DNA of 32,000 nt from Crocosphaera subtropica ATCC 51142 (GTDB lineage: Bacteria; Cyanobacteriota; Cyanobacteriia; Cyanobacteriales; Microcystaceae): the NCBI RefSeq assembly GCF_000017845.1, contig NC_010546.1:2100001-2132000 (forward strand), in the 5' to 3' direction. A model generated the notes under the pieces. It did not search any database. It saw only the letters and a list, made by a program, of their open reading frames with translations, and was not told the origin of the DNA. This document shows, piece after piece, positions 2,564-25,622 of this stretch (its first letter is position 1; each line of letters opens with the position of its first letter). Made by a program: the position numbers and the translations under genes.

Positions 2564-2635
2564 TGGGTCGCCTGGGATTCGAACCCAAGACCAATCGGTT
2601 AAAAGCCGAGTGCTCTACCGCTGAGCTAGCGACCC
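2564..2635 (-). tRNA. tRNA-Lys (anticodon UUU), 72 nt, CCA not encoded
   Basis: The reverse complement reads GGGTCGC TA GCTC AGCGGTA GAGC A CTCGG CTTTTAA CCGAT TGGTC TTGGG TTCGAAT CCCAG GCGACCC A. The acceptor, D and T arms pair perfectly. The anticodon loop is CU-UUU-AA, with one C:U mismatch at 27:43. Confidence 0.95.
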
Positions 2636-10883: not shown

Positions 10884-11474
10884 AAAAAAGTATGTTATAC
10901 CAATTCTCAAAAGTTACTAGAGACTTAATAAATATTCCTTTTCCTTTATCTCCCCTGTTCCCTCTGCTTACCTCAACGAATAATCTTTTATCTGAGAGGG
11001 ACGATTTTCAATGAAGTTCGGTGGTTGGGAATACTCTCTTTTATGAAGGTTTTTATCGTTGAGTTAATTATCTTGTCTACTATGTAGGGGAAGCAACTCA
11101 GTATTTTGTGACTTATGATACGATAATAAGGAGAAGAATAAATGGACTTCCCTAGAATTGAAAGGATTGAAGGCTGAGAGGAGTGAGTACATAGTTTTTC
11201 CTAACCCAAGTTGCCTTATCGTTTATTATGGCATCGATTAAGAGAATGCCAAAAGCGTCGACAACGGTTTTCAGGATTTTTGTTAAGGATAGATCCGTCA
11301 GAGTTTCCAACCGACTGTGTCCTTAGTAGGCGTATCGTATAAACGTTAAAGGTTGACTGATATCTCAATTACTTTAAGTTAAATTGTCTTAGTTATGACA
11401 AGAGACGGGACTGCTCTGAATTAACTAAGCAAATGGTTCACTTTACACTTCTTTTAGTTTTTGGAGTTAATCTA

Positions 11475-11771
11475 ATGAAACGCTCTATCATTAGCTTACT
11501 TGCTTTGTCTACCATCGGTTTATTAACGTTACCTGCTTTAGCCGATGATGCCACTATCCAACGATCAGACCAAGTCTCAACCCAAGAAGGCAACAGAAAC
11601 ACTGCTATCCAAGATAGTTCTCAAAGCAATATTAACCGAGGTCGTAATCGCCGAGGGGAAGACACAGGAACAGTACAAGAAAGTTACCAAGATACGTTAC
11701 AACAAGGCAGCGATAACGTCAGTGTTCAAGAAAGCGATCAAAGAAATGTTCGTGATACTCGTAGACGTTAA
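11475..11771 (+). CDS. Small secreted Q/S/N/R-rich protein of unknown function (98 aa from the SD-preceded ATG; the track ORF starts at 11433)
   Basis: GGAG lies 8 nt upstream of the ATG at 11475. The signal peptide is MKRSIISLLALSTIGLLTLPALA|DD. The mature part has no hydrophobic core and carries three motif copies starting at G39, G61 and G78. Confidence 0.65.
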   Translation: MKRSIISLLALSTIGLLTLPALADDATIQRSDQVSTQEGNRNTAIQDSSQSNINRGRNRRGEDTGTVQESYQDTLQQGSDNVSVQESDQRNVRDTRRR

Positions 11772-12092
11772 TTCTCTTCTAAAATTTGACTGAATTTTCT
11801 TCAGTTAGATGTTAAACCTGGTTTATGTTTGTAGGGAGGATTTTACAGGTATTTTGGGGGTAGGGTAACCGATAAAAAATGTTGCTTACCCAGAAAACAA
11901 GCAAACAACATTTCTGTCTTTACAGTGTTTCTTTTCGTTTTTTGGAGTTGCCTCCTAGCCCCAGTGTATCATTTATTTCATGGCATCGTCTATGAGACTA
12001 ATCCAGCAAAGGACACAACCCTGAGTTCTCAAGACAATCGGCCAAGAAATGTTAGCCATCCTAGACCTGAATTCTCCATAAACAATTAGTTC

Positions 12093-12140
12093 TAGGGGTT
12101 AGACTTGGGGGTTAACACCGCACGAAGGGTCTAACCTCTG
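12093..12140 (+). promoter_or_regulatory. Leader hairpin ahead of the 12171 gene
   Basis: Core stem GGTTAGAC(12097-12104)/GTCTAACC(12129-12136) extends to ~12 bp with G:U pairs, has a 24-nt loop, and ends 30 nt before the ATG. Confidence 0.25.
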
Positions 12141-12170
12141 GATTCTGTTGACTGATGTGAGGTAATAAAC

Positions 12171-12527
12171 ATGAAATTAATGAAGCTTGTCTTTAGTATG
12201 GCTACGCTATTAATTTTTCTGCCGATCAATGTTCAAGGGGAACCCACTGATGTTCAAGCAGGAAATGTCAGGATTCTTCGAGAACCCAATGGCAACATTG
12301 AGATTAATACAGGAGAAACACAACTGAGTGTTCCTGGAAACTCAAGAACAAGGAACAGTGATGATTATTCCCTAGAGGATAGGGAGATGAATTCCTCAAC
12401 TTCTAGACAAACAATTCGTAATACTCGCTGTGATAATAGCCGTGTTTCCTCCCATCAAACCAGTCGGGTTCGGGGATCAAATCGAACAGTAAGACAAACC
12501 AGTGTTTTAACGAATACTTGTCCGTAA
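12171..12527 (+). CDS. Small secreted S/T/R/N-rich protein of unknown function
   Basis: GAGGT Shine-Dalgarno and signal peptide MKLMKLVFSMATLLIFLPINVQG|E. The C-terminal half is low complexity with two Cys (RCDNS...TNTCP). Confidence 0.6.
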   Translation: MKLMKLVFSMATLLIFLPINVQGEPTDVQAGNVRILREPNGNIEINTGETQLSVPGNSRTRNSDDYSLEDREMNSSTSRQTIRNTRCDNSRVSSHQTSRVRGSNRTVRQTSVLTNTCP

Positions 12528-12545
12528 GACTTCTAGGAGGTTACG

Positions 12546-12917
12546 ATGAAATTAACTTATTTGAGTGCTGGTTTACTATCAGTTACTAGCTTATTCTGTT
12601 TGACTTTGGTTAACCCTGAGTTGGCCTCTGCTCAATGTGTACAGTCCCATACAGGGGTTCAGGTTCACATGGGACAAACCCCGGCAGAACAAACCCATAA
12701 TACTCGATTTGAAAACCAAGGTGATTGTACAGGTAATGCCAGTTCAACAACTTCAACCCAGGTTCAAGTTGGAGGAGACAATGTGCGTCAACATCAAGAA
12801 TCTCGCCATCAAACCCGTGGGAGTAGTCGAAATCCTTCTGGGGTGAGTGGACCGACGGTAAGTGTTGATACTGTTGCTCCTGTTGACGTTCAAACCCCTG
12901 AAAATTTTCCTTACTAA
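12546..12917 (+). CDS. Small secreted Q/S/T-rich protein of unknown function
   Basis: Strong AGGAGG SD 6 nt upstream and signal peptide ...NPELASA|QC. It shares GGDNVRQHQES and HQTRGSSRN-type strings with the two preceding small proteins. Confidence 0.65.
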   Translation: MKLTYLSAGLLSVTSLFCLTLVNPELASAQCVQSHTGVQVHMGQTPAEQTHNTRFENQGDCTGNASSTTSTQVQVGGDNVRQHQESRHQTRGSSRNPSGVSGPTVSVDTVAPVDVQTPENFPY

Positions 12918-12975
12918 CTTTAGTTAGTCTGCTAATGTGTGTTGTTAATACACATTAGCTAGTTGTTGTTGAGGA

Positions 12976-13548
12976 ATGATCATGAACAACAAAAAAAATT
13001 TTATACTCTTTTCAGTTTTTGGAGCTTTATTGGTAATTATAATTACTCTTATTAATCAAGCAACTGAAGGATTTTTGAGTCAATTCCCAGTCATTAATGA
13101 CAACAATAAAGCCATTGAGGTTGACAAAAAAGAGACTGACCTTGAGATGAGAGAGGAACCAACTAGACCGATGAATCAGCATTCAATGGATAATATAGCT
13201 ACTCTAATCTCTCAATCTTATCAAGAACAACAAACTCAAATTAGTCTCAGTCAATATGAGCTAAATCGTCCCTATACGTTAACCATTAAAACAAGTAATC
13301 AAGGAACCCAATTACAAGGAGAAATTCGGCTGAATGGTCGATCTATTCAATCATTGAATCAACATCAAACTGTGATTAATTTATCCCCTTATTTGCAGGT
13401 AGGAAAACAGATGATTGAAATCTCAGGGAACTATACACCGATCAATGACTCAATTATCATTGAACTCAAAAGTCAAAATAGCCAAACCAGTCAAACCACC
13501 AGTGGAACTGGACAACTGCAACAACGGTTAATTATTAATGTAGAATAA
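12976..13548 (+). CDS. N-terminally membrane-anchored protein of unknown function
   Basis: GAGGA SD and a single N-terminal hydrophobic helix (FILFSVFGALLVIIITLI). The C-terminal ~90 aa have an alternating beta-strand-like pattern (YTLTIKTS..GEIRLNGRSI..INLSPYLQVGKQMIEISG..IIIELK). Confidence 0.6.
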   Translation: MIMNNKKNFILFSVFGALLVIIITLINQATEGFLSQFPVINDNNKAIEVDKKETDLEMREEPTRPMNQHSMDNIATLISQSYQEQQTQISLSQYELNRPYTLTIKTSNQGTQLQGEIRLNGRSIQSLNQHQTVINLSPYLQVGKQMIEISGNYTPINDSIIIELKSQNSQTSQTTSGTGQLQQRLIINVE

Positions 13549-13568
13549 GGAAAATTTTTGGTTGATCC

Positions 13569-14669
13569 ATGAATCAAAATCTTAATTGGGTTGGTTTTAC
13601 TTCAATGACGGTGGTGAGTTTAACCGCTTTTACTGCTAATGCTCAAATTCCCCAAACTGCCATTCAAGAAGTTCTGATTCAAGGAAGTTCTAATGAAGTG
13701 AATCAACAATTAACACAGACATTTTTCTTGAATTTTGTTTACTTGCCTCAGATAGAACCGTCAGATATTCCTGAGTTAAACATTCAAGGTTCTTTTTTGG
13801 ATAATACTAATAATGAAGTTATACAACAAATTGGAAAAACGGTTTTAGATTTTCCTTTAGTCGAAAGTCGTTTAACGAGTTTTTCCATTGAAGATTTTGT
13901 CAATCATGATGGGACGCTGAATGGAAACCAATACAGTACCCAACAAGCTTTAATCGGTAATAGTCAAGAAACGAATAATCAAAATAATACAATTAGCCAA
14001 ATTAGTTATCAAACCTTAACTAATTTTTTCTGGTTAGATGATTCTAGTGGGATGACAGGGGAAGAAAACTTTAATCAATTTTTAGAGAAACTTCTTACCC
14101 ATCAAAAGCTAGATTCTCTACAATTTAGTTTACAGGATGCTATTGTTTATGGGGATAATAATATTATTAGCCAAACCGTTGAGCAAACCTTTCATCATTT
14201 TATTTTGACAAATCAAACTTTAGATTTTTCGTCTGAGTTAAATGATCTTGATCCTTCTTTGGGATTAGATCCTATTCAGTTTCTGATTCAAGAGACATTT
14301 ACCATTGATCCGAGTAATAATATCAGTGCAAACAATTTAGTCACTCAACGTATTAATCAATTGATTGGCGGAACTTCTTTTTTTAATACTAATTCACTCC
14401 ACTCAGTTTTACCAAGTTCTCAGCTTTCAGAGGTTGAAACAAACTCTTTAGTTGATTTTGATATCGATGCCTTTATTGAAGCGATTTTAAATGATATAAC
14501 CATTGCAACAACCCAAATTAGTCGTCAAACATCGGAGATATTGGGAGATGAGAACGAGGTATTTCAGAGTAATACCCAGGTTCTTGTCACCACTGTTCCT
14601 GAGCCAAATAGCCTAAAAATGTTACTATCAATGGCAATCATGGGAGCGATCGCTCTACTTCGTAAATGA
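13569..14669 (+). CDS. PEP-CTERM-anchored secreted repeat protein of unknown function
   Basis: Signal peptide (..LTAFTANA|Q). The C-terminal VPEP + hydrophobic helix (LKMLLSMAIMGAIALL) + RK is the PEP-CTERM exosortase sorting signal. Six copies of x-x-x-N-x-[VI]-x-Q-x-x-x-[QK] occur, four of them spaced exactly 58 aa apart. Confidence 0.8.
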   Translation: MNQNLNWVGFTSMTVVSLTAFTANAQIPQTAIQEVLIQGSSNEVNQQLTQTFFLNFVYLPQIEPSDIPELNIQGSFLDNTNNEVIQQIGKTVLDFPLVESRLTSFSIEDFVNHDGTLNGNQYSTQQALIGNSQETNNQNNTISQISYQTLTNFFWLDDSSGMTGEENFNQFLEKLLTHQKLDSLQFSLQDAIVYGDNNIISQTVEQTFHHFILTNQTLDFSSELNDLDPSLGLDPIQFLIQETFTIDPSNNISANNLVTQRINQLIGGTSFFNTNSLHSVLPSSQLSEVETNSLVDFDIDAFIEAILNDITIATTQISRQTSEILGDENEVFQSNTQVLVTTVPEPNSLKMLLSMAIMGAIALLRK

Positions 14670-14693: not shown

Positions 14694-16799
14694 ATGCTCA
14701 AGTTTTTTGTTGATCGTGGTGGTACTTTTACCGATATTGTTGCAGTTATTAATGACTCAAGCCTTATTGAGCAATTATCCCAAAAATCAGAACCGTTTTT
14801 AATGGCATCTTTACCCCATCACACATGGATAGTTGTTTATAAATTGCTTTCAGAAAATCCTGAACGTTATCAAGATGCTGTCATTCAAGGGATTAGAGAT
14901 ATATTATGTCTTGATGATCATCAACCTATCCCCACAGAAACAATAGAAGTGGTCAAAATGGGGACAACCGTTGCCACCAATGCTTTACTGGAAAGAAAAG
15001 GCGATCGCACTGTTTTATTAATAACAAAAGGGTTCAAAGATGCCCTGAAAATTGGTTATCAAAACCGTCCTAATATTTTTGCCCGTCACATTGTTTTACC
15101 TTCTATGTTGTATGAGTCGGTTATCGAAGTAGAAGAAAGATATGATCGGGATGGTAAGGAATTAATTCCCGTTAACTTAGAGAAAGTAAGAGACAATTTA
15201 AAAGAAATTTACGATCAAGGAATCAGAAGTTGTGCCATTGTTTTCATGCACAGTTATCGTTATCCCAACCATGAAAATCAAGTGGCTGAAATTGCCAAAA
15301 AGATGGGATTTACTCAGATTTCAATTTCTCATCAAGTTAGTCCTTTGATGAAACTGGTTTCTAGGGGAGATACTACAGTGGTTGATGCTTATTTATCCCC
15401 TATTTTAAGACGCTATGTTGATCAAGTTTCTAGTCAATTACCCAACACAAAGTTGATGTTTATGAAATCCGATGGCGGATTAATTGATGCCCATAAATTT
15501 CAAGGAAAAGACAGTATCTTATCCGGTCCAGCAGGGGGAATTGTTGGGGCAGTCCAAACCAGTTTAAGAGCAGGATTTCAAGGAATTATTACTTTTGATA
15601 TGGGCGGAACTAGCACCGATGTCGCCCATTTTAAAGGAGAATATGAACGGCAATTAGATAATGAAATTGCTGGTGCTAGAATGCGAGTTCCAGTCTTAAG
15701 TATTCACACCGTTGCTGCTGGTGGAGGTTCTATTTTATACTTCGATGGTGCTAGTTTTAAGGTTGGTCCAGACTCTGCTGGTGCTAACCCTGGACCCGCT
15801 TGTTACCGTCGTGGAGGCCCATTAACAGTAACAGATGCTAATGTTATGTTAGGGAAAATTCAGCCTCACTATTTTCCTCATATTTTTGGAAAAGAGGGAA
15901 ACTTACCATTAGACAAAGAAATCGTGAATAATAAGTTTTTAGACTTATCTCAAGAAATTTATCAATCTACGAATCATCAAAATAGTCCTGAAAACATAGC
16001 AGCAGGATTTATTAAAATTGCTGTCGAAAATATGGCTAATGCTATTAAAAAAATTAGCTTACAAAGAGGATATGATGTCACTCATTACACCTTATGTACT
16101 TTTGGGGGGGCAGGGGGTCAGGTTGCTTGTTTAATTGCCGATACACTGGGTATCAAAACCATATTCTTGCATCCTTATGCTGGTGGTTTAAGTGCTTATG
16201 GAATGGGCTTGGCTGATATCAGAGTAATTAAAGAAAGTTCTCTCGAAAAACCCTTAAATGAAGACATAATTAGCGAATTAAAACCAATGATTAATGAGTT
16301 AGAAAATCAAGCAAGAAATGAACTAGATGAACACGAATCGATTAAGGGAGAAACAATTGTTCCCAAAGTCAGTTTAAAATATCAAGGAACCGACTCAACT
16401 TTACTCGTTGATTTTTCTGATAATATTACACTGATGCAGAAATCTTTTGAAGATGAACATCAATTAAGATATGGTTTCATTCAACCTCAAAAAATGCTGA
16501 TTGTAGAATCCATTTCTGTCGAGATTATTCAAATTATGGATAGTCCTGATGAACCCTTAATAACTCGTATTCGTCCTTTAGATGAGTTACCTAAACCCCT
16601 AGAAATTGTTAACGTTTTTACCGACAATCAATGGCAAGATACCCCCATTTTCCAACGAGAAGATTTACAACCTCAAGATAATATTAAAGGTCCAGCCATT
16701 ATAATTGAAAAGATTAGCACCATTATGATTGAACCTCATTGGACGGCCCGATTAACTGAGTATAATCATTTGATTTTAGAACGGGATTATAATTACTGA
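14694..16799 (+). CDS. Hydantoinase A / 5-oxoprolinase N-terminal-type (HyuA-like) protein, with no HyuB part
   Basis: MLKFFVDRGGTFTDIVA, MGTTVATNALLERKG, DMGGTSTDV and TFGGAGGQ are hydantoinase/oxoprolinase (acetate/sugar-kinase fold) signatures. The ORF stops at 701 aa and the next gene is convergent. Confidence 0.85.
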   Translation: MLKFFVDRGGTFTDIVAVINDSSLIEQLSQKSEPFLMASLPHHTWIVVYKLLSENPERYQDAVIQGIRDILCLDDHQPIPTETIEVVKMGTTVATNALLERKGDRTVLLITKGFKDALKIGYQNRPNIFARHIVLPSMLYESVIEVEERYDRDGKELIPVNLEKVRDNLKEIYDQGIRSCAIVFMHSYRYPNHENQVAEIAKKMGFTQISISHQVSPLMKLVSRGDTTVVDAYLSPILRRYVDQVSSQLPNTKLMFMKSDGGLIDAHKFQGKDSILSGPAGGIVGAVQTSLRAGFQGIITFDMGGTSTDVAHFKGEYERQLDNEIAGARMRVPVLSIHTVAAGGGSILYFDGASFKVGPDSAGANPGPACYRRGGPLTVTDANVMLGKIQPHYFPHIFGKEGNLPLDKEIVNNKFLDLSQEIYQSTNHQNSPENIAAGFIKIAVENMANAIKKISLQRGYDVTHYTLCTFGGAGGQVACLIADTLGIKTIFLHPYAGGLSAYGMGLADIRVIKESSLEKPLNEDIISELKPMINELENQARNELDEHESIKGETIVPKVSLKYQGTDSTLLVDFSDNITLMQKSFEDEHQLRYGFIQPQKMLIVESISVEIIQIMDSPDEPLITRIRPLDELPKPLEIVNVFTDNQWQDTPIFQREDLQPQDNIKGPAIIIEKISTIMIEPHWTARLTEYNHLILERDYNY

Positions 16800-18286: not shown

Positions 18287-18619
18287 TTGAGAATGGATAA
18301 TATTTTTCAATTACCTAATCAATTAAATGACCAAGAGATTTTTGAAACGATTCTTAACAGTAAAAATGTTAAAATTGAGCGTATTATTTCCACAGGACAA
18401 ACCACCCCCGAAGGCACTTGGTATGATCAAGACCAAGATGAATGGGTGATTTTACTGCAAGGAGAAGCGACGTTATTATATTCAGACAATTCCTCAATTT
18501 CTCTTACAACAGGGGATTATTTATTAATCAAAGCCCATGAAAAACATCGGGTTACATTTACCAGTAGTGATCCTCCTTGTATTTGGTTAGCGATTCATGG
18601 AAATTTAGTGAATAACTAG
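18287..18619 (+). CDS. Small cupin-domain protein
   Basis: The ~105-aa beta-barrel pattern ([13 protein letters not shown] ... [14 protein letters not shown]) fits the cupin_2 type. The likely real start is the ATG at 18293, since the track start is TTG. Confidence 0.7.
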
Positions 18620-19620: not shown

Positions 19621-21540
19621 TTAACGATTACTCTGAGAACCGTCAGTGTCAAGAATCGGCACAAATTCATTTTGCGGAGCTAATGAAGGGGGAATTTCTG
19701 GTTTTGTCGGTTGCAGAAGCTTATTCCAAACCGTGATTTGCGCTTGAGCAGAGCTATAAGCAGCACTATCCCCAGGAACCATCTTAGCTAATTTTACTGC
19801 TTCAGGTAATAGGGAACGATTGGCCAATTTTTGAGCCATAGACAGTAGTTGAAAACTCCAACGATCAAGGGCTTGTTTGGCTTCAGAACTCATATCCGTC
19901 GACGAGGGAATTTTACGAACCACCGCAATCGCAGAAATTAAGGCTTGAGGGGTTTGGGGTTGAGCCAGCAAATAAGCCTCTTGTAAATTGCGATCCGCAC
20001 GAATTTCCCGTTGCCATTGGTTAATATTGTTTTGCGCTTCGGAATAGAGTATCCGACCTGCACCAATTTGTTGAGCGGTGTTAATGGCTGCTTGATAGTC
20101 CTTTCCGGCTGCTAAGGCCATAGCCTGATTTAAAATCGGTTGATCCTCTTGACGTTGTATACTCCCGCGCCAATCATTAATCTCACTTTGAGCTTCATTC
20201 GATAAAGCCCGGCCTGGACCAATCATTTGGGCTTGGGCGATGGCTTGTCTTAAATCAGAGATATTGCCACTGGCTGCCATACTGCGGGCTTGATCCAAGA
20301 TCGGTTGATCTTCACGCAGTTGAATGGTATTCGTCCATTCATTAATTTCTTGTCTAGCTTCTTGGTAACGGGGGTTACGAGCAGGAACTTGTTCAGCGGC
20401 CGCAATGGCTGCATTCAAATCGTCAATACTACCCCCTGAGGCTAAATCACGAGCTTCTTGCAGATGGATAACATCTTCTATTTCTAATTGGAAACGACTG
20501 ATCAAATCTTGGGCTTCTTGGTAAAGGGGACGATTTTCGTCAATTTCTTCTAAGGCCAAAATAGCAATTTCTAGGTTTTCTACTGTCCCTGTTTGAGCAT
20601 CTAAACCAGCACTGGCCATGGTTCTCCAGTCGGCTATTTCTTCCGATAATGCTAGACTATCCGGCAATCGGTTAACCACATCGGACAAAGTGGACCAACG
20701 GCGATCATCAATGAGGCCATCGATATAGTCAGTAATTTTTTCTTTGGCATCTTCGATGAGGTTTTGGGCTTCTCGATAAGCGTAACTCTCAGGGGTGATT
20801 TTTTCAGCATCGGCGATCGCTGTTAACCAATTGTCAATTCCCCCTCGACGCAAAACAGCATAAGCATTATCCAAGCGACTGCTTTCTTCTTGAGCTAATT
20901 GGATTCTATTGACCGTATCATCGTATCTTGTCGTTGCCCAGTATTTATTGGGAATACTCAAGAGTTTAACCGCTTCTCTAAATGCTAGATTCCAGTTAGA
21001 CTCTCGTAATTCTTCTTCAACCTGAGCAAAAATTTCTTCCCCTTCTCTCCAAATATTGCGCCACTTTTCGATTCGTTCTTCTACCACCTCATACACTTGA
21101 ACATTATTAGGGACACGACGGGCTGTTTTGATGGCTTCTTCTAAGTTACCCTTTTGGAATTCTTCTTCAGCAATATCTAGGATGGCTACCGCCCAGTCTT
21201 CAACGTTACGGTTAATTTCGTGCCGTAGAGGATGATCATCGGGCAGTGCTTCAACTAATTTAATCGCTCGTAGGAAGCTATCGACAGTCCCTTGTTCTGC
21301 TTCTATTTGGGCGCAATAAATCCGCATCGACGCTGAAGCAACTGGCCAAAAAATTCGCACACATTGAGGGGATTTGGGCAATCTGAGCAACATCGATGTT
21401 GCCGTAAAACCGATAGTTCCAGAGACGATAATTAGTGCGATCGCCCAGAGTTGCCAAGGAATTTGACTGGTTCGCAGGGCAATACGCTCTAATAAAGCTT
21501 GATGATTCCCATGAGTCCCTTGATTTGTCGATTGTTCCAT
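19621..21540 (-). CDS. N-terminally membrane-anchored protein built from ~45-50-aa helical repeats; function unknown
   Basis: One TM helix (LWAIALIIVSGTIGFTATSMLL), then repeated units ending Y-x-EAQ-x-x-I-x-x-W: YQEARQEINEW, SNEAQSEINDW, YSEAQNNINQW, YSSAQAQITVW, YREAQNLIED, YQEAQDLISRF. Confidence 0.7.
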   Translation of the reverse strand: MEQSTNQGTHGNHQALLERIALRTSQIPWQLWAIALIIVSGTIGFTATSMLLRLPKSPQCVRIFWPVASASMRIYCAQIEAEQGTVDSFLRAIKLVEALPDDHPLRHEINRNVEDWAVAILDIAEEEFQKGNLEEAIKTARRVPNNVQVYEVVEERIEKWRNIWREGEEIFAQVEEELRESNWNLAFREAVKLLSIPNKYWATTRYDDTVNRIQLAQEESSRLDNAYAVLRRGGIDNWLTAIADAEKITPESYAYREAQNLIEDAKEKITDYIDGLIDDRRWSTLSDVVNRLPDSLALSEEIADWRTMASAGLDAQTGTVENLEIAILALEEIDENRPLYQEAQDLISRFQLEIEDVIHLQEARDLASGGSIDDLNAAIAAAEQVPARNPRYQEARQEINEWTNTIQLREDQPILDQARSMAASGNISDLRQAIAQAQMIGPGRALSNEAQSEINDWRGSIQRQEDQPILNQAMALAAGKDYQAAINTAQQIGAGRILYSEAQNNINQWQREIRADRNLQEAYLLAQPQTPQALISAIAVVRKIPSSTDMSSEAKQALDRWSFQLLSMAQKLANRSLLPEAVKLAKMVPGDSAAYSSAQAQITVWNKLLQPTKPEIPPSLAPQNEFVPILDTDGSQSNR

Positions 21541-22441: not shown

Positions 22442-23395
22442 ATGTCTATATTTGATTGGTTTGCTAAACAAGAAAAGTCAGAACCCCCCATTCAACAACA
22501 ACAGAAAGAACGGGAAATTGCTGATGGTTTATGGACTAAATGTGTAGCTTGTACCGCATTAACTTACACAAAAGACCTTCAGGCCAATCAACTGGTTTGT
22601 ACCGAATGTGGTCATCATTTTCGGGTAGAAAGTTCCGAACGCATTGCCCAGTTAATGGATAAAAATACCTGGAAACCCCTCAATGATCATCTTACCCCCA
22701 CCGATCCTCTGAAATTCTGCGATCGCAAACCCTACAGCGATCGGATCAAGGACACTCAAGAAAAAACGGGGTTAGTTGATGCAGTGCAAACGGGAACCGG
22801 ATTAATTGATGGTCTTCCTTTGGCCCTCGGTGTGATGGACTTCCGCTTTATGGGGGGTAGTATGGGGTCTGTGGTGGGGGAAAAACTCTGCCGTCTTATT
22901 GAATACGCCACCCAAGAACGGTTGCCAGTGGTGATTGTCTGCGCTTCTGGTGGAGCAAGAATGCAAGAAGGAATGTTAAGTTTAATGCAGATGGCCAAAA
23001 TTTCGGGGGCCTTAGAACGTCATCGCAACGCCAAATTACTCTATATTCCTGTCTTAACCCATCCCACCACTGGAGGAGTTACCGCTAGTTTTGCCATGTT
23101 AGGGGATTTAATTATTGCTGAACCCAACGCTACCATTGGTTTTGCTGGACGACGGGTGATTGAACAAACCTTAAGGGAAAAGTTACCGGATGGCTTCCAA
23201 ACGTCAGAATATTTATTAAAACATGGCTTTGTGGACGCCATTGTTTCCCGTACTCAACTGAAAAAAACCCTTGCTCAATTAATCAGTATCCATCAGCCTT
23301 TTTTCCCTGTCTTACCCCCTCTTAACGTCCGTGAAAAGCATCATCATCATCACTCAGAAGAGGTTGTTCTGAAAATGGATGGAAAGGAAGAATAA
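22442..23395 (+). CDS. accD: Acetyl-CoA carboxylase carboxyltransferase beta subunit
   Basis: N-terminal FDWFAK, a zinc ribbon C-x2-C-x15-C-x2-C (CVAC...CTECGH), and [22 protein letters not shown]. The C-terminal tail carries HHHHH. Confidence 0.95.
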
Positions 23396-23428
23396 ATATT
23401 CCCATATAACTAATGTTATCTAATAGTA

Positions 23429-23450
23429 GGGGTCAACCACCGTTGACCTT
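23429..23450 (+). terminator. Possible accD terminator hairpin
   Basis: GGTCAAC-cacc-GTTGACC (7 bp, extendable by G:U pairs), 35 nt after the accD stop, followed by TTATAATAAGTTTT. Confidence 0.35.
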
Positions 23451-23599
23451 ATAATAAGTTTTGATTTGAGCAAATGTAGCAATTATTAATATTGTTGGGT
23501 TTCGTTTTAATCCTACTTCTGACGTTGTTGTAACATCGATTCCGTAAAGACCGACAATCTTTACAAAAACGCTACTTAGTTAGTAAAACTCTAAATGAA

Positions 23600-23830
23600 G
23601 ATAAAGTTGTATTTAATTTGTCTTCAGTGTGTGACATCCTCCCCAACTAACTGCAAGCAGTATAGTTGGGGCTTCCCACCTCACGATGAGATATTTCTGC
23701 CCACAGAGGTAAACCCCTACGCCAGTTATCTAGGCTCATCACCCCCGACACCTCGACTTGACAGACAGTTTCCTTTTCCCTGAGTCCCAGGGTAGTAGAT
23801 TCTATTCCTCGATTGCAGACCTCCTGTGCG
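23600..23830 (-). ncRNA. Candidate omega-RNA (reRNA) scaffold overlapping the tnpB 3' end
   Basis: The position follows established TnpB biology. On the minus strand, CCCCAACTATACTGC-TT-GCAGTTAGTTGGGG forms a 14-bp stem with one bulge and spans the stop codon. Further local pairings include CCCTG/CAGGG and ACCTC/GAGGT. The boundaries are guessed. Confidence 0.3.
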
Positions 23831-25100
23831 CTTGCTACGTCCCGATCAACAAAATAGTCAACCCCGTAACCGCATTCATAACAGGCGTGAAACCTATCAG
23901 ATAAGGTCTTTTTGGCTTCTGCACGACAATTAGGACAAGTTTGGCTAGTTCCCCGATGATCAACCAAACCAAAATACTTGCCTCTAATCTTGCAAACGTA
24001 CTGTAGAATATCCCTAAATTGCCCAAAACCTGCATCAAGGGTATGTTTACCCAAAAAGCCCTTAGCCATTGTGCGGAAATCTATATCTTCCATAAAGATA
24101 GAGTCTCCCATATCACAGACTTTATGGGCTAATTTGAACTGGTAATCTTTTCGTTTGAAAGCAATATGATTGTGTTGCTTTTCTATTTTCTTTCTAGCTT
24201 TCTCGTAGTTCTTAGAACGTTTGGTTTTTCTTGCTAACCGACGTTGTAGCACTTTCAGCCTACGGTGTTCGGTTTTGAAGAATTTACGTCTTTTTTCTAC
24301 ATAATTATCCGAGGTTGCTAAGTAGCTAGAAAGTCCGACATCAAGGCCAAGAAAATGCCCAAATGGTGTTTCTATTTTAGGTAAACTTATGTCGGATTGA
24401 ATGCTAATTACGGCAAACCAACCCTTAGCTTTTTTGATAATTCTTACCTGTTTAATTATAAACCCATTGGGTATGGGACGATGAAGATTGATTTCAATTT
24501 TCCCCAATTTAGGTAACTTTATTTGCCACCCTGTCAACGGGTTACTTCTAAATTGAGGAAATAATAAAGACTTCATTTGTCCATATTTCTTGAACCGAGG
24601 AAAGCCAAACCCCCGATTACGAAAAAAGTCCCAAGCGTCGTGAAGTCTCCTAACATTTGTTTGTAAGACTTGACTTGGAACTTTAGCTAACTCAGGATAT
24701 ACTTTTTTAGCTTTTGGTAATTGGTTTTGTTGCTGATGATAACTTGGGAAAGGATAATCAGCAGACATGATGTACTCTGACTCCAAACTACATCTATCTA
24801 CTAGGCACTTACGACTAGAAATCCAATCCTTCAACTCACGCAAAGCATAGTTATATGAACGGCGACAAATTTCTAGCCATTCAGATAACATTGCTTCTTG
24901 TTTGCTATCAGGATAAATCCTGTATGTGTAGTTCAGTGTTAGAGTCATAGCCATAGTTTAGCACAAGGTTGCTAAAATGGTAACACAAATTATCTAAGCA
25001 AGGTTGTGCTTTGCACGTTAATATTTTGGTCAAAATTCATCCCCATCTAAAATGTGAGTATTTTGTTAGAATTTATAGATGGGGACTTCTTTTGACATTC
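23620..25100 (-). mobile_element. TnpB-only IS200/IS605-type element (approximate ends)
   Basis: The tnpB ORF is flanked by a 3' hairpin at 23641..23671 and by a subterminal palindrome TCCCCATCTA(25040-25049)/TAGATGGGGA(25076-25085) upstream of the start. Ends cannot be fixed without a second copy. Confidence 0.55.
23647..24954 (-). CDS. tnpB: TnpB (IS200/IS605-family OrfB; RuvC-type RNA-guided endonuclease family)
   Basis: N-terminal TLNYTYRIYPDSKQEAML..., RuvC-I LGLDVGL, RuvC-II IFMEDIDF, zinc ribbon CPNC-x14-CYEC, RuvC-III VDRDVASA. There is no transposase partner. Confidence 0.9.
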   Translation of the reverse strand: MAMTLTLNYTYRIYPDSKQEAMLSEWLEICRRSYNYALRELKDWISSRKCLVDRCSLESEYIMSADYPFPSYHQQQNQLPKAKKVYPELAKVPSQVLQTNVRRLHDAWDFFRNRGFGFPRFKKYGQMKSLLFPQFRSNPLTGWQIKLPKLGKIEINLHRPIPNGFIIKQVRIIKKAKGWFAVISIQSDISLPKIETPFGHFLGLDVGLSSYLATSDNYVEKRRKFFKTEHRRLKVLQRRLARKTKRSKNYEKARKKIEKQHNHIAFKRKDYQFKLAHKVCDMGDSIFMEDIDFRTMAKGFLGKHTLDAGFGQFRDILQYVCKIRGKYFGLVDHRGTSQTCPNCRAEAKKTLSDRFHACYECGYGVDYFVDRDVASAQEVCNRGIESTTLGLREKETVCQVEVSGVMSLDNWRRGLPLWAEISHREVGSPNYTACS

Positions 25101-25218
25101 CTGTTAAAATGTAGTGTAATCATTTTACTTTGACTAGAAAAATTTGATAGCATAGGAGAATCATTAATGTTTTCAACAATTTCTCAAATGACAAATCAAA
25201 GCATCATTATAGCCTCGT

Positions 25219-25248
25219 AGGTTGGGTCGATGGAAGGAAACCCAACCT
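25219..25248 (-). terminator. Hairpin 24 nt downstream of the MIF-like gene (possible terminator or dispersed hairpin repeat)
   Basis: AGGTTGGGT-12 nt-ACCCAACCT, a perfect 9-bp stem with no clean U-tract. Confidence 0.3.
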
Positions 25249-25271
25249 TAAAATTATAGAGGACAAACTAA

Positions 25272-25622
25272 CTAAAATGTCTTACCATTCCATCCCCACA
25301 TACTACCTTTAGCATCAGCAAATTCGATATAAGTCCGATTTTTATCAACCCCTAATGTATCTTCAATGACTTGACAAAAATCATCACTCATGGCTTTAGT
25401 TTGTGAAGGACTCATATTACCCACACTTTTAACTTCTAAGTAACAAACAGGATCAAAAGTTCCTGAGAAAGTCATCTTAATATCTGAGTCAAAAGAAGTC
25501 ATAACATAGGATTCAGGTTTACCTAAATGTTGGGCTAATTTAGCTGATAAAGTTGTCAGCAAAGATTCAATAACGTTTGATTCTGGTTGAGAAACAGATG
25601 TTTTTACTTGAATTAATGGCAT
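25272..25622 (-). CDS. MIF / tautomerase-superfamily protein (macrophage migration inhibitory factor homologue)
   Basis: 116 aa starting MP (Pro-1). LAQHLGKPESYV, a beta-alpha-beta duplication, and a C-terminal WGWNGKTF that parallels the vertebrate MIF ending VGWNNSTF. Confidence 0.85.
   Translation of the reverse strand: MPLIQVKTSVSQPESNVIESLLTTLSAKLAQHLGKPESYVMTSFDSDIKMTFSGTFDPVCYLEVKSVGNMSPSQTKAMSDDFCQVIEDTLGVDKNRTYIEFADAKGSMWGWNGKTF

Follow-up and report, generated by a model that had tools for sequence, protein, structure and literature searches.

What is a solo tnpB gene doing in a housekeeping neighborhood of the Crocosphaera subtropica ATCC 51142 genome? The gene lies between accD and a gene of the MIF family in the 32,000-nt stretch that we analyzed (NC_010546.1, positions 2,100,001 to 2,132,000, called the window below and numbered from its first base). 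A preliminary description of the locus had left open whether it is a homing element or a domesticated nuclease. The explanation that we consider very probable is that the gene is carried by a 1,472-bp non-autonomous, tnpB-only insertion sequence (IS) of the IS200/IS605 family, inserted in the spacer between accD and the MIF gene and working as an RNA-guided homing element like ISDra2 of Deinococcus radiodurans.

The argument begins with the protein, for which the following features are needed.

23647..24954, minus strand: tnpB coding sequence, 435 aa
24342-24340, 24090-24088 and 23841-23839, minus strand: codons of the catalytic residues D205, E289 and D372
C340, C343, C358 and C361: the four cysteines of a CCCC zinc finger (TNB domain) within RuvC

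All of the TnpB motifs previously quoted for this open reading frame (ORF) were found, in the order described: LGLDVGL (residues 202-208), IFMEDIDF (286-293), CPNC (340-343), CYEC (358-361) and VDRDVASA (369-376), with exactly 14 residues between the two CxxC pairs. The reading frame is intact, being full length against 22 close copies; an in-frame second ATG at 24948 gives a 433-aa protein, which is the form present in the public protein collection. The three Pfam models named for checking all matched above their gathering scores: HTH_OrfB_IS605 (PF12323; 52.2 bits, cutoff 21), OrfB_IS605 (PF01385; 55.2 bits, cutoff 30.5) and Cas12f1-like_TNB (PF07282; 49.6 bits, cutoff 26.3), the last being Pfam's present name for OrfB_Zn_ribbon. 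The NCBIfam guided_TnpB model (NF040570) covered residues 9-377 with a score of 271.6 bits (cutoff 100). A database search returned 3,643 homologs at E ≤ 1e-10; of those listed with a source name, nearly all come from cyanobacteria, and several bear the title "RNA-guided endonuclease InsQ/TnpB family protein."

We then compared the protein with TnpB of ISDra2. Sequence similarity between the two is low and a hidden Markov model alignment was needed: phmmer with the single window sequence against Protein Data Bank chains found ISDra2 TnpB at E = 4.5e-21, and a 17-member family profile found its structures 8BF8, 8EXA and 8H1J at E = 3e-34, with an alignment that now reached the C-terminal RuvC motif. 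The domain order is the same (HTH/WED-REC, a split RuvC and a CCCC zinc finger). In the phmmer and profile alignments to 8BF8 and 8H1J, checked by residue counting, D205, E289 and D372 pair residue for residue with ISDra2 D191, E278 and D361, D372 being the second D of DRD. The D/E/D residues originally picked are therefore the ones that align with the ISDra2 triad, and none is substituted. A cryo-electron microscopy study named D191, E278 and D361 as the ISDra2 catalytic centre (PMC10097598), and both D191A and E278A abolish ISDra2 TnpB activity (PMC8612924). Across 23 copies, neither the three window residues nor any of the four zinc-finger cysteines changes, while the adjacent D370 varies. 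Judged by its profile matches and aligned triad, the ORF is a TnpB of the IS200/IS605 type, as had been proposed, and by analogy with ISDra2 it is predicted to carry out RNA-guided double-stranded DNA cleavage that depends on a transposon-associated motif (TAM).

Two features set the window protein apart from ISDra2 TnpB. Its clade extends about 55 residues past the NCBIfam guided_TnpB profile, and in its subclade four additional residues (VDYF) lie between the zinc finger and DRD. We considered whether VDYF might be a private lesion near the active site and rejected this, since 9 of the 23 copies share it; it is a subclade trait and not damage.

A scan of a genome collection returned 80 related loci, none of them from the source genome. 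Nearly all are in cyanobacterial assemblies, Crocosphaera watsonii WH 8501 alone contributing at least five. Comparing their flanks by BLASTN and MAFFT placed the element at 25102..23631, 1,472 bp in all, with the following ends.

25103..25107, minus strand: TTAAC, five nucleotides abutting the left end on its 5' side; presumed to serve as insertion target and TAM
24955..25102, minus strand: left end, upstream of the tnpB start, with two hairpins
23631..23643, minus strand: terminus of the right end, GGGAGGATGTCAC; the element ends at base 23631

TTAAC was invariant in all 21 copies with a readable left end; homology among the copies starts directly after it, and each copy has unrelated DNA on the upstream side. 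IS605 of Helicobacter pylori, compared here by its target alone, is reported to insert at TTTAA or TTAAC (PMC13565253), which fits the motif before all 21 left ends, although IS605 encodes both TnpA and TnpB. The corresponding motif of ISDra2 also lies 5' of the left end and is also 5 nt long, but reads TTGAT. The right end is equally sharp. The element closes with GGATGTCAC: conservation runs up to ...GTCAC and unrelated DNA follows straight after, the transition falling on one and the same base in each of the 33 copies that could be aligned. The terminus GGGAGGATGTCAC occurs as an exact match only once in the window. The limits given in the preliminary description, 23620-25100, were within about 10 bases of the element plus its TTAAC.

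In the left end, arms at 25096-25073 and 25052-25029 form a long, imperfect hairpin, which is followed by a second one (25010-24992 and 24978-24960). In the outer stem of the long hairpin, 5 of the 11 predicted pairs have undergone compensatory changes among the 21 copies, one example being GTCAAAA/TTTTGAC against GTCGGGC/GCCCGAC. Subterminal hairpins are present at both ends of the element, and the hairpins of both ends covary. Terminal inverted repeats are absent. This absence, together with the subterminal hairpins and the pentanucleotide abutting the left end, is the architecture of IS200/IS605 elements.

The left end also occurs by itself on two plasmids. Its first 135 nt match NC_014504.1 of Gloeothece verrucosa PCC 7822 (37183-37314; 79% identity), and its first 68 nt match NC_011721.1 of Rippkaea orientalis PCC 8801 (18369-18436; 88% identity). 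No annotated gene underlies either match. These sequences may be gene-less derivatives, comparable to palindrome-associated or miniature inverted-repeat transposable elements, or they may be remnants.

Neither a Y1_Tnp nor a resolvase domain was found by Pfam scans of the window, which covered all 29 ORFs that reach 100 aa and a few shorter ones, so that the reported lack of a Y1 TnpA or serine recombinase in the 32 kb holds among ORFs of at least 100 aa. The close copies are alike in this: the distance from TTAAC to the tnpB start is 148-225 nt, and therefore none of them can hold a tnpA there. A cruder test, a search for the HUH motif in the 67 flanking ORFs of 100-230 aa across the 80 loci, found none. 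ISDra2, by contrast, has its own tnpA. Since the element has no tnpA, it falls in the tnpB-only IS1341 group, which the IS200/IS605 family is described as including (PMC13565253); on its gene content, it is a non-autonomous, tnpB-only, IS1341-type member of that family. A tnpA gene lies near only about 25% of tnpB genes, and tnpB-only elements are thought to be mobilized in trans (PMC10055086).

The closest characterized parallel in organization is the IS1341-type ISGst of Geobacillus stearothermophilus. There too tnpB is the only gene, the hairpins of the left and right ends are conserved, and a covarying omega RNA overlaps the end of the gene; mobilization by a TnpA in trans is presumed (PMC10055086; PMC13565253; PMC4615843). 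The window element differs from ISGst in the phylum of its host and in its sequence clade, and its cognate TnpA is only postulated. Copies of the window family within one genome are 82-89% identical, whereas those of ISGst form near-identical families.

With the ends and the gene content in hand, a different TnpB relative, namely an IS607-type element or a miniature type V effector of the Cas12f or c2c8-like kind, can be weighed. The window protein does match the NCBIfam models IS607_TnpB (NF038280; 79.9 bits) and V_cas_c2c8 (NF038192; 117.9 bits), and its zinc-ribbon domain bears the Pfam name Cas12f1-like_TNB. Both matches, however, are weak and far under the cutoff of 350, no resolvase is encoded among the window ORFs of at least 100 aa, no CRISPR-like array lies between 18 and 30 kb of the window, and the end structure and TTAAC are of the IS200/IS605 kind. 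We give this identity practically no credence: the profile scores below cutoff, the lack of a resolvase and the lack of a CRISPR array effectively refute it.

If the element works as ISDra2 does, its guide RNA should overlap the 3' end of tnpB, run to the right end and take its guide from the flank. The preliminary description had placed an RNA there, and a covarying structure that passes both shuffle and slide controls was found at that position. Its parts are as follows.

23631..23792, minus strand: conserved structured RNA (omega-RNA or reRNA scaffold), about 160 nt, spanning the last ~48 tnpB codons to the right end
23792-23778, minus strand: hairpin with a conserved GGGACUC loop
23757-23721, minus strand: helix
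~23718-23703, minus strand: variable hairpin
23690-23675, minus strand: GUGA-loop hairpin
23671-23641, minus strand: terminal hairpin, with the tnpB stop codon in its 3' arm
23640-23631, minus strand: single-stranded tail AGGAUGUCAC, invariant
23615..23630, minus strand: predicted guide ACACTGAAGACAAATT, the flanking sequence that adjoins the right end on its 3' side; it may reach ~23611

We aligned the last 160-180 nt or so of the element from 39 copies. The RNAalifold consensus contains 32 pairs, 16 of them with compensatory changes. Over the 29 pairs of the three well-aligned helices, 98.1% were standard pairs, compared with 82.4% after column shuffling and 32-45% when the pairing was slid by 1-3 columns. 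The covariation score was 0.437, against 0.159 for shuffled alignments (none of 500 shuffles reached it) and at most 0.064 for slid ones. The GUGA-loop and variable hairpins are visible in the alignment, with a column shift between subgroups, and were excluded from this pair count.

The coding sequence carries a second mark of the same RNA. Between the window tnpB and 22 copies, the synonymous divergence (dS) was 0.54-2.9 at residues 1-377 and 0.17-0.53 at residues 378-435. This two- to fivefold drop falls in the last ~58 codons (window 23647..23820), where gene and RNA overlap, and the low dS of this 3' part therefore points to constraint at the nucleotide level. Within the same region of the protein, some copies have a 15-residue insertion, TGRTSSGGHLQRQPL, which corresponds to an extra RNA hairpin.

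From this conserved structure, we predict that the omega RNA is transcribed. By analogy with the pseudoknot of ISDra2, the invariant GAC in the first hairpin's loop may be a pairing partner for the GUC of the tail AGGAUGUCAC, a pairing without covariation support. Rfam, searched in gathering and permissive modes, had no family for the window RNA; the subthreshold matches to snoR9, His_leader and others are attributed to chance. A promoter and terminator scan gave nothing above the expectation from shuffled sequence, and the promoter-like sites upstream of tnpB all lie outside the element.

The guide had been expected just below about 23.6 kb, in the 3' flank of accD. The right end at 23631 puts it at 23630..23615, inside the 235-nt accD-tnpB spacer and outside accD. 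Its length of 16 nt is taken from ISDra2 (PMC8612924, PMC10097598), and it is on this analogy that we infer ACACTGAAGACAAATT to be the guide of the omega RNA. No second match to it is present in the 32-kb window.

On the model of the characterized relatives ISDra2 and Geobacillus ISGst, the element would work as follows. Transcription of the minus strand would continue through tnpB to about 16 nt beyond the right end, and the 3' part of the transcript would be processed to an omega RNA with the guide ACACTGAAGACAAATT, which TnpB would bind. A Y1 TnpA encoded elsewhere in the genome would excise the element and reseal the flanks, bringing TTAAC directly against ACACTGAAGACAAATT; the scarless donor joint would thus read TTAAC followed by ACACTGAAG. 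The TnpB-RNA complex would recognize TTAAC as its TAM together with the guide match and would cut this joint with RuvC residues D205, E289 and D372, and recombination with a chromosome copy that still bears the element would restore it. Without a TnpA in trans, the copy would be immobile and its nuclease would have no target in the cell.

A rival possibility is that the element is a stranded relic: real but inert, lacking a compatible TnpA, its ORF intact only by chance or because little time has passed. No tnpA is encoded by the window ORFs of at least 100 aa, nor was one found beside any of the 80 related copies, and DNA identity to the nearest relative found is only about 89%. Copies within the same genome in other Crocosphaera are 82-89% identical, so that no recent burst is visible, as the relic explanation would have it. 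Decay, however, would not be expected to leave what we observed in the 22 close copies examined: in all 22 the ORF has kept its full length and the triad does not vary, and dN/dS (the ratio of nonsynonymous to synonymous divergence) is below 0.1. Over residues 1-377, TnpB dN/dS between the window copy and these copies was 0.035-0.10, a range that describes the divergence of the family and not selection since insertion at the accD/MIF site. By this sequence measure, the family shows long-term purifying selection on the TnpB protein. The window copy itself has kept both ends, TTAAC and the RNA structure intact.

The family also still moves, which again speaks against a relic. Two pairs of copies from different Crocosphaera assemblies have coding sequences that are 98.8% (L013 and L017) and 99.1% (L016 and L018) identical and flanks that are unrelated, and further copies sit on Gloeothece plasmids; it is these near-identical copies at unrelated sites and the plasmid copies that indicate movement. 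Taking both sides together, we regard a stranded relic as unlikely. At two loci of C. watsonii WH 8501 (L050 and L082), the BLAST alignment is split into pieces 1.4-2 kb apart; tnpB is there interrupted by other insertions in an IS-rich genome.

We then considered domestication, in which TnpB would serve the host as a regulator or a site-specific nuclease acting on a TTAAC-flanked guide match at some other genomic site or on the 3' region of accD. The copy is single and solo in a housekeeping neighborhood, the protein has been under long-term purifying selection, and domestication of TnpB is documented (PMC10705468). The documented cases include the TldRs, TnpB-like nuclease-dead repressors, which share descent from TnpB, have a fixed natural guide RNA and often occur as single copies in non-transposon contexts. 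TldRs were recognized by mutations that inactivate RuvC, leaving fewer than two of the three DED residues, and in many of them the C terminus is truncated, affecting the zinc finger and RuvC (PMC10705468). Unlike them, the window TnpB retains D205, E289 and D372, the zinc finger and both transposon ends, with TTAAC intact. The window contains no further match to the guide, and the flank, and hence the guide, differs at every site among the members of the family. The locus, moreover, is not conserved in relatives, as the neighboring genes reveal.

22442..23395, plus strand: accD, neighbor of tnpB
25272..25622, minus strand: MIF-family (tautomerase) gene, neighbor of tnpB

A Pfam scan bore out the reported placement between these two genes. 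On the accD side, orthologs keep the block glmU-cupin-DUF1350-642 aa-75 aa-accD and diverge right after the accD stop codon, ribBA coming next in one relative. Orthologs of the MIF gene keep the block PIN/YCF81-HemN-flavin reductase-MIF, which is followed, depending on the lineage, by genes for nonribosomal peptide or polyketide synthesis, radical SAM or DNA methylase; homology to the window on this side ends at ~25210-25218, some 55-60 nt beyond MIF. A synteny breakpoint (23396..23630 and 25108..25271) thus coincides with the element, the accD-side and MIF-side blocks each being conserved in relatives but joined there to other neighbors (loci L084-L094). In the closest accD relative, three independent Logan contigs (L090, L091 and L092) end about 154 nt downstream of accD with the same sequence, suggesting that the assembly of that relative broke at a repeated element.

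In view of this, we think domestication very unlikely indeed. Of the two options that the preliminary description had left undecided, the mobile non-autonomous element is the one favored, because the ends, TTAAC and the triad are intact, the locus is not syntenic and near-identical members of the family occupy unrelated sites.

Several points nevertheless weigh against a working homing element, beginning with the family-wide scope of the dN/dS values given above. The closest copy found, at 89% DNA identity, has a dS of ~0.54, so the insertion is not demonstrably recent. Neither an empty site nor a donor joint was found through the MIF or accD orthologs of relatives, which follows from the break in synteny where the element lies. 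Metagenome contigs were scanned for exact matches to the reconstructed junction ACATTTTAACACACTGAAGACA and, separately, to the right flank, and neither scan gave any. A simple scan flagged no sigma-70-like promoter inside the left end. The role of TTAAC as insertion target and TAM is presumed from its position and by analogy, and the activity and expression of the window copy are likewise predicted only, from its characterized relatives.

With these points counted, an RNA-guided homing element remains the explanation that we prefer, and the element is an ordinary, uncharacterized member of a very well-known class; about three-quarters of tnpB genes have no tnpA nearby (PMC10055086). Its only mildly unusual feature is a pattern of the whole family. 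Every genome examined of the clade holds several TnpB elements without tnpA that are intact, 82-89% identical to one another and under a dN/dS below 0.1, and no near-identical bursts were seen within any one of the genomes examined. Such copies might persist as long-lived, individually selected loci, which we consider very unlikely. If they did, RNA-guided homing between the chromosome copies of polyploid cyanobacteria would maintain them; alternatively, each fixed guide would have a host function at its own site, and the window copy would mark or maintain the accD-MIF breakpoint.

The locus has little significance for discovery. What the analysis adds is the base-accurate ends, the TTAAC motif, the covariation-supported omega-RNA structure and the predicted guide of one cyanobacterial subfamily. 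These could be of direct use in trials of Crocosphaera/Cyanothece TnpB as a compact genome editor and in the study of IS-linked rearrangements in these nitrogen-fixing cyanobacteria.

Some other features of the window lie outside the element. In the spacer between MIF and tnpB, a snoR9 Rfam match (25147..25248, minus strand) scored 25.7 bits (E = 0.002), where the gathering score is 90, and is read as chance. A 639-aa ORF (19621..21540, minus strand) has no Pfam match and is kept beside DUF1350, upstream of accD, in relatives; its counterparts are 642 aa long in L090 and 640 aa in L094. Five consecutive ORFs of 112, 118, 123, 190 and 366 aa (11433..14669, plus strand), which have no Pfam match at E ≤ 1e-3, lie directly upstream of a hydantoinase/oxoprolinase A gene (14694..16799). 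The sole RNA gene found in the window by Rfam or ARAGORN is a tRNA-Lys (UUU) at 2564..2635 on the minus strand. Finally, a terminator-like hairpin, GGTTGGGT...ACCCAACC, is present just after MIF, in the MIF-tnpB spacer.

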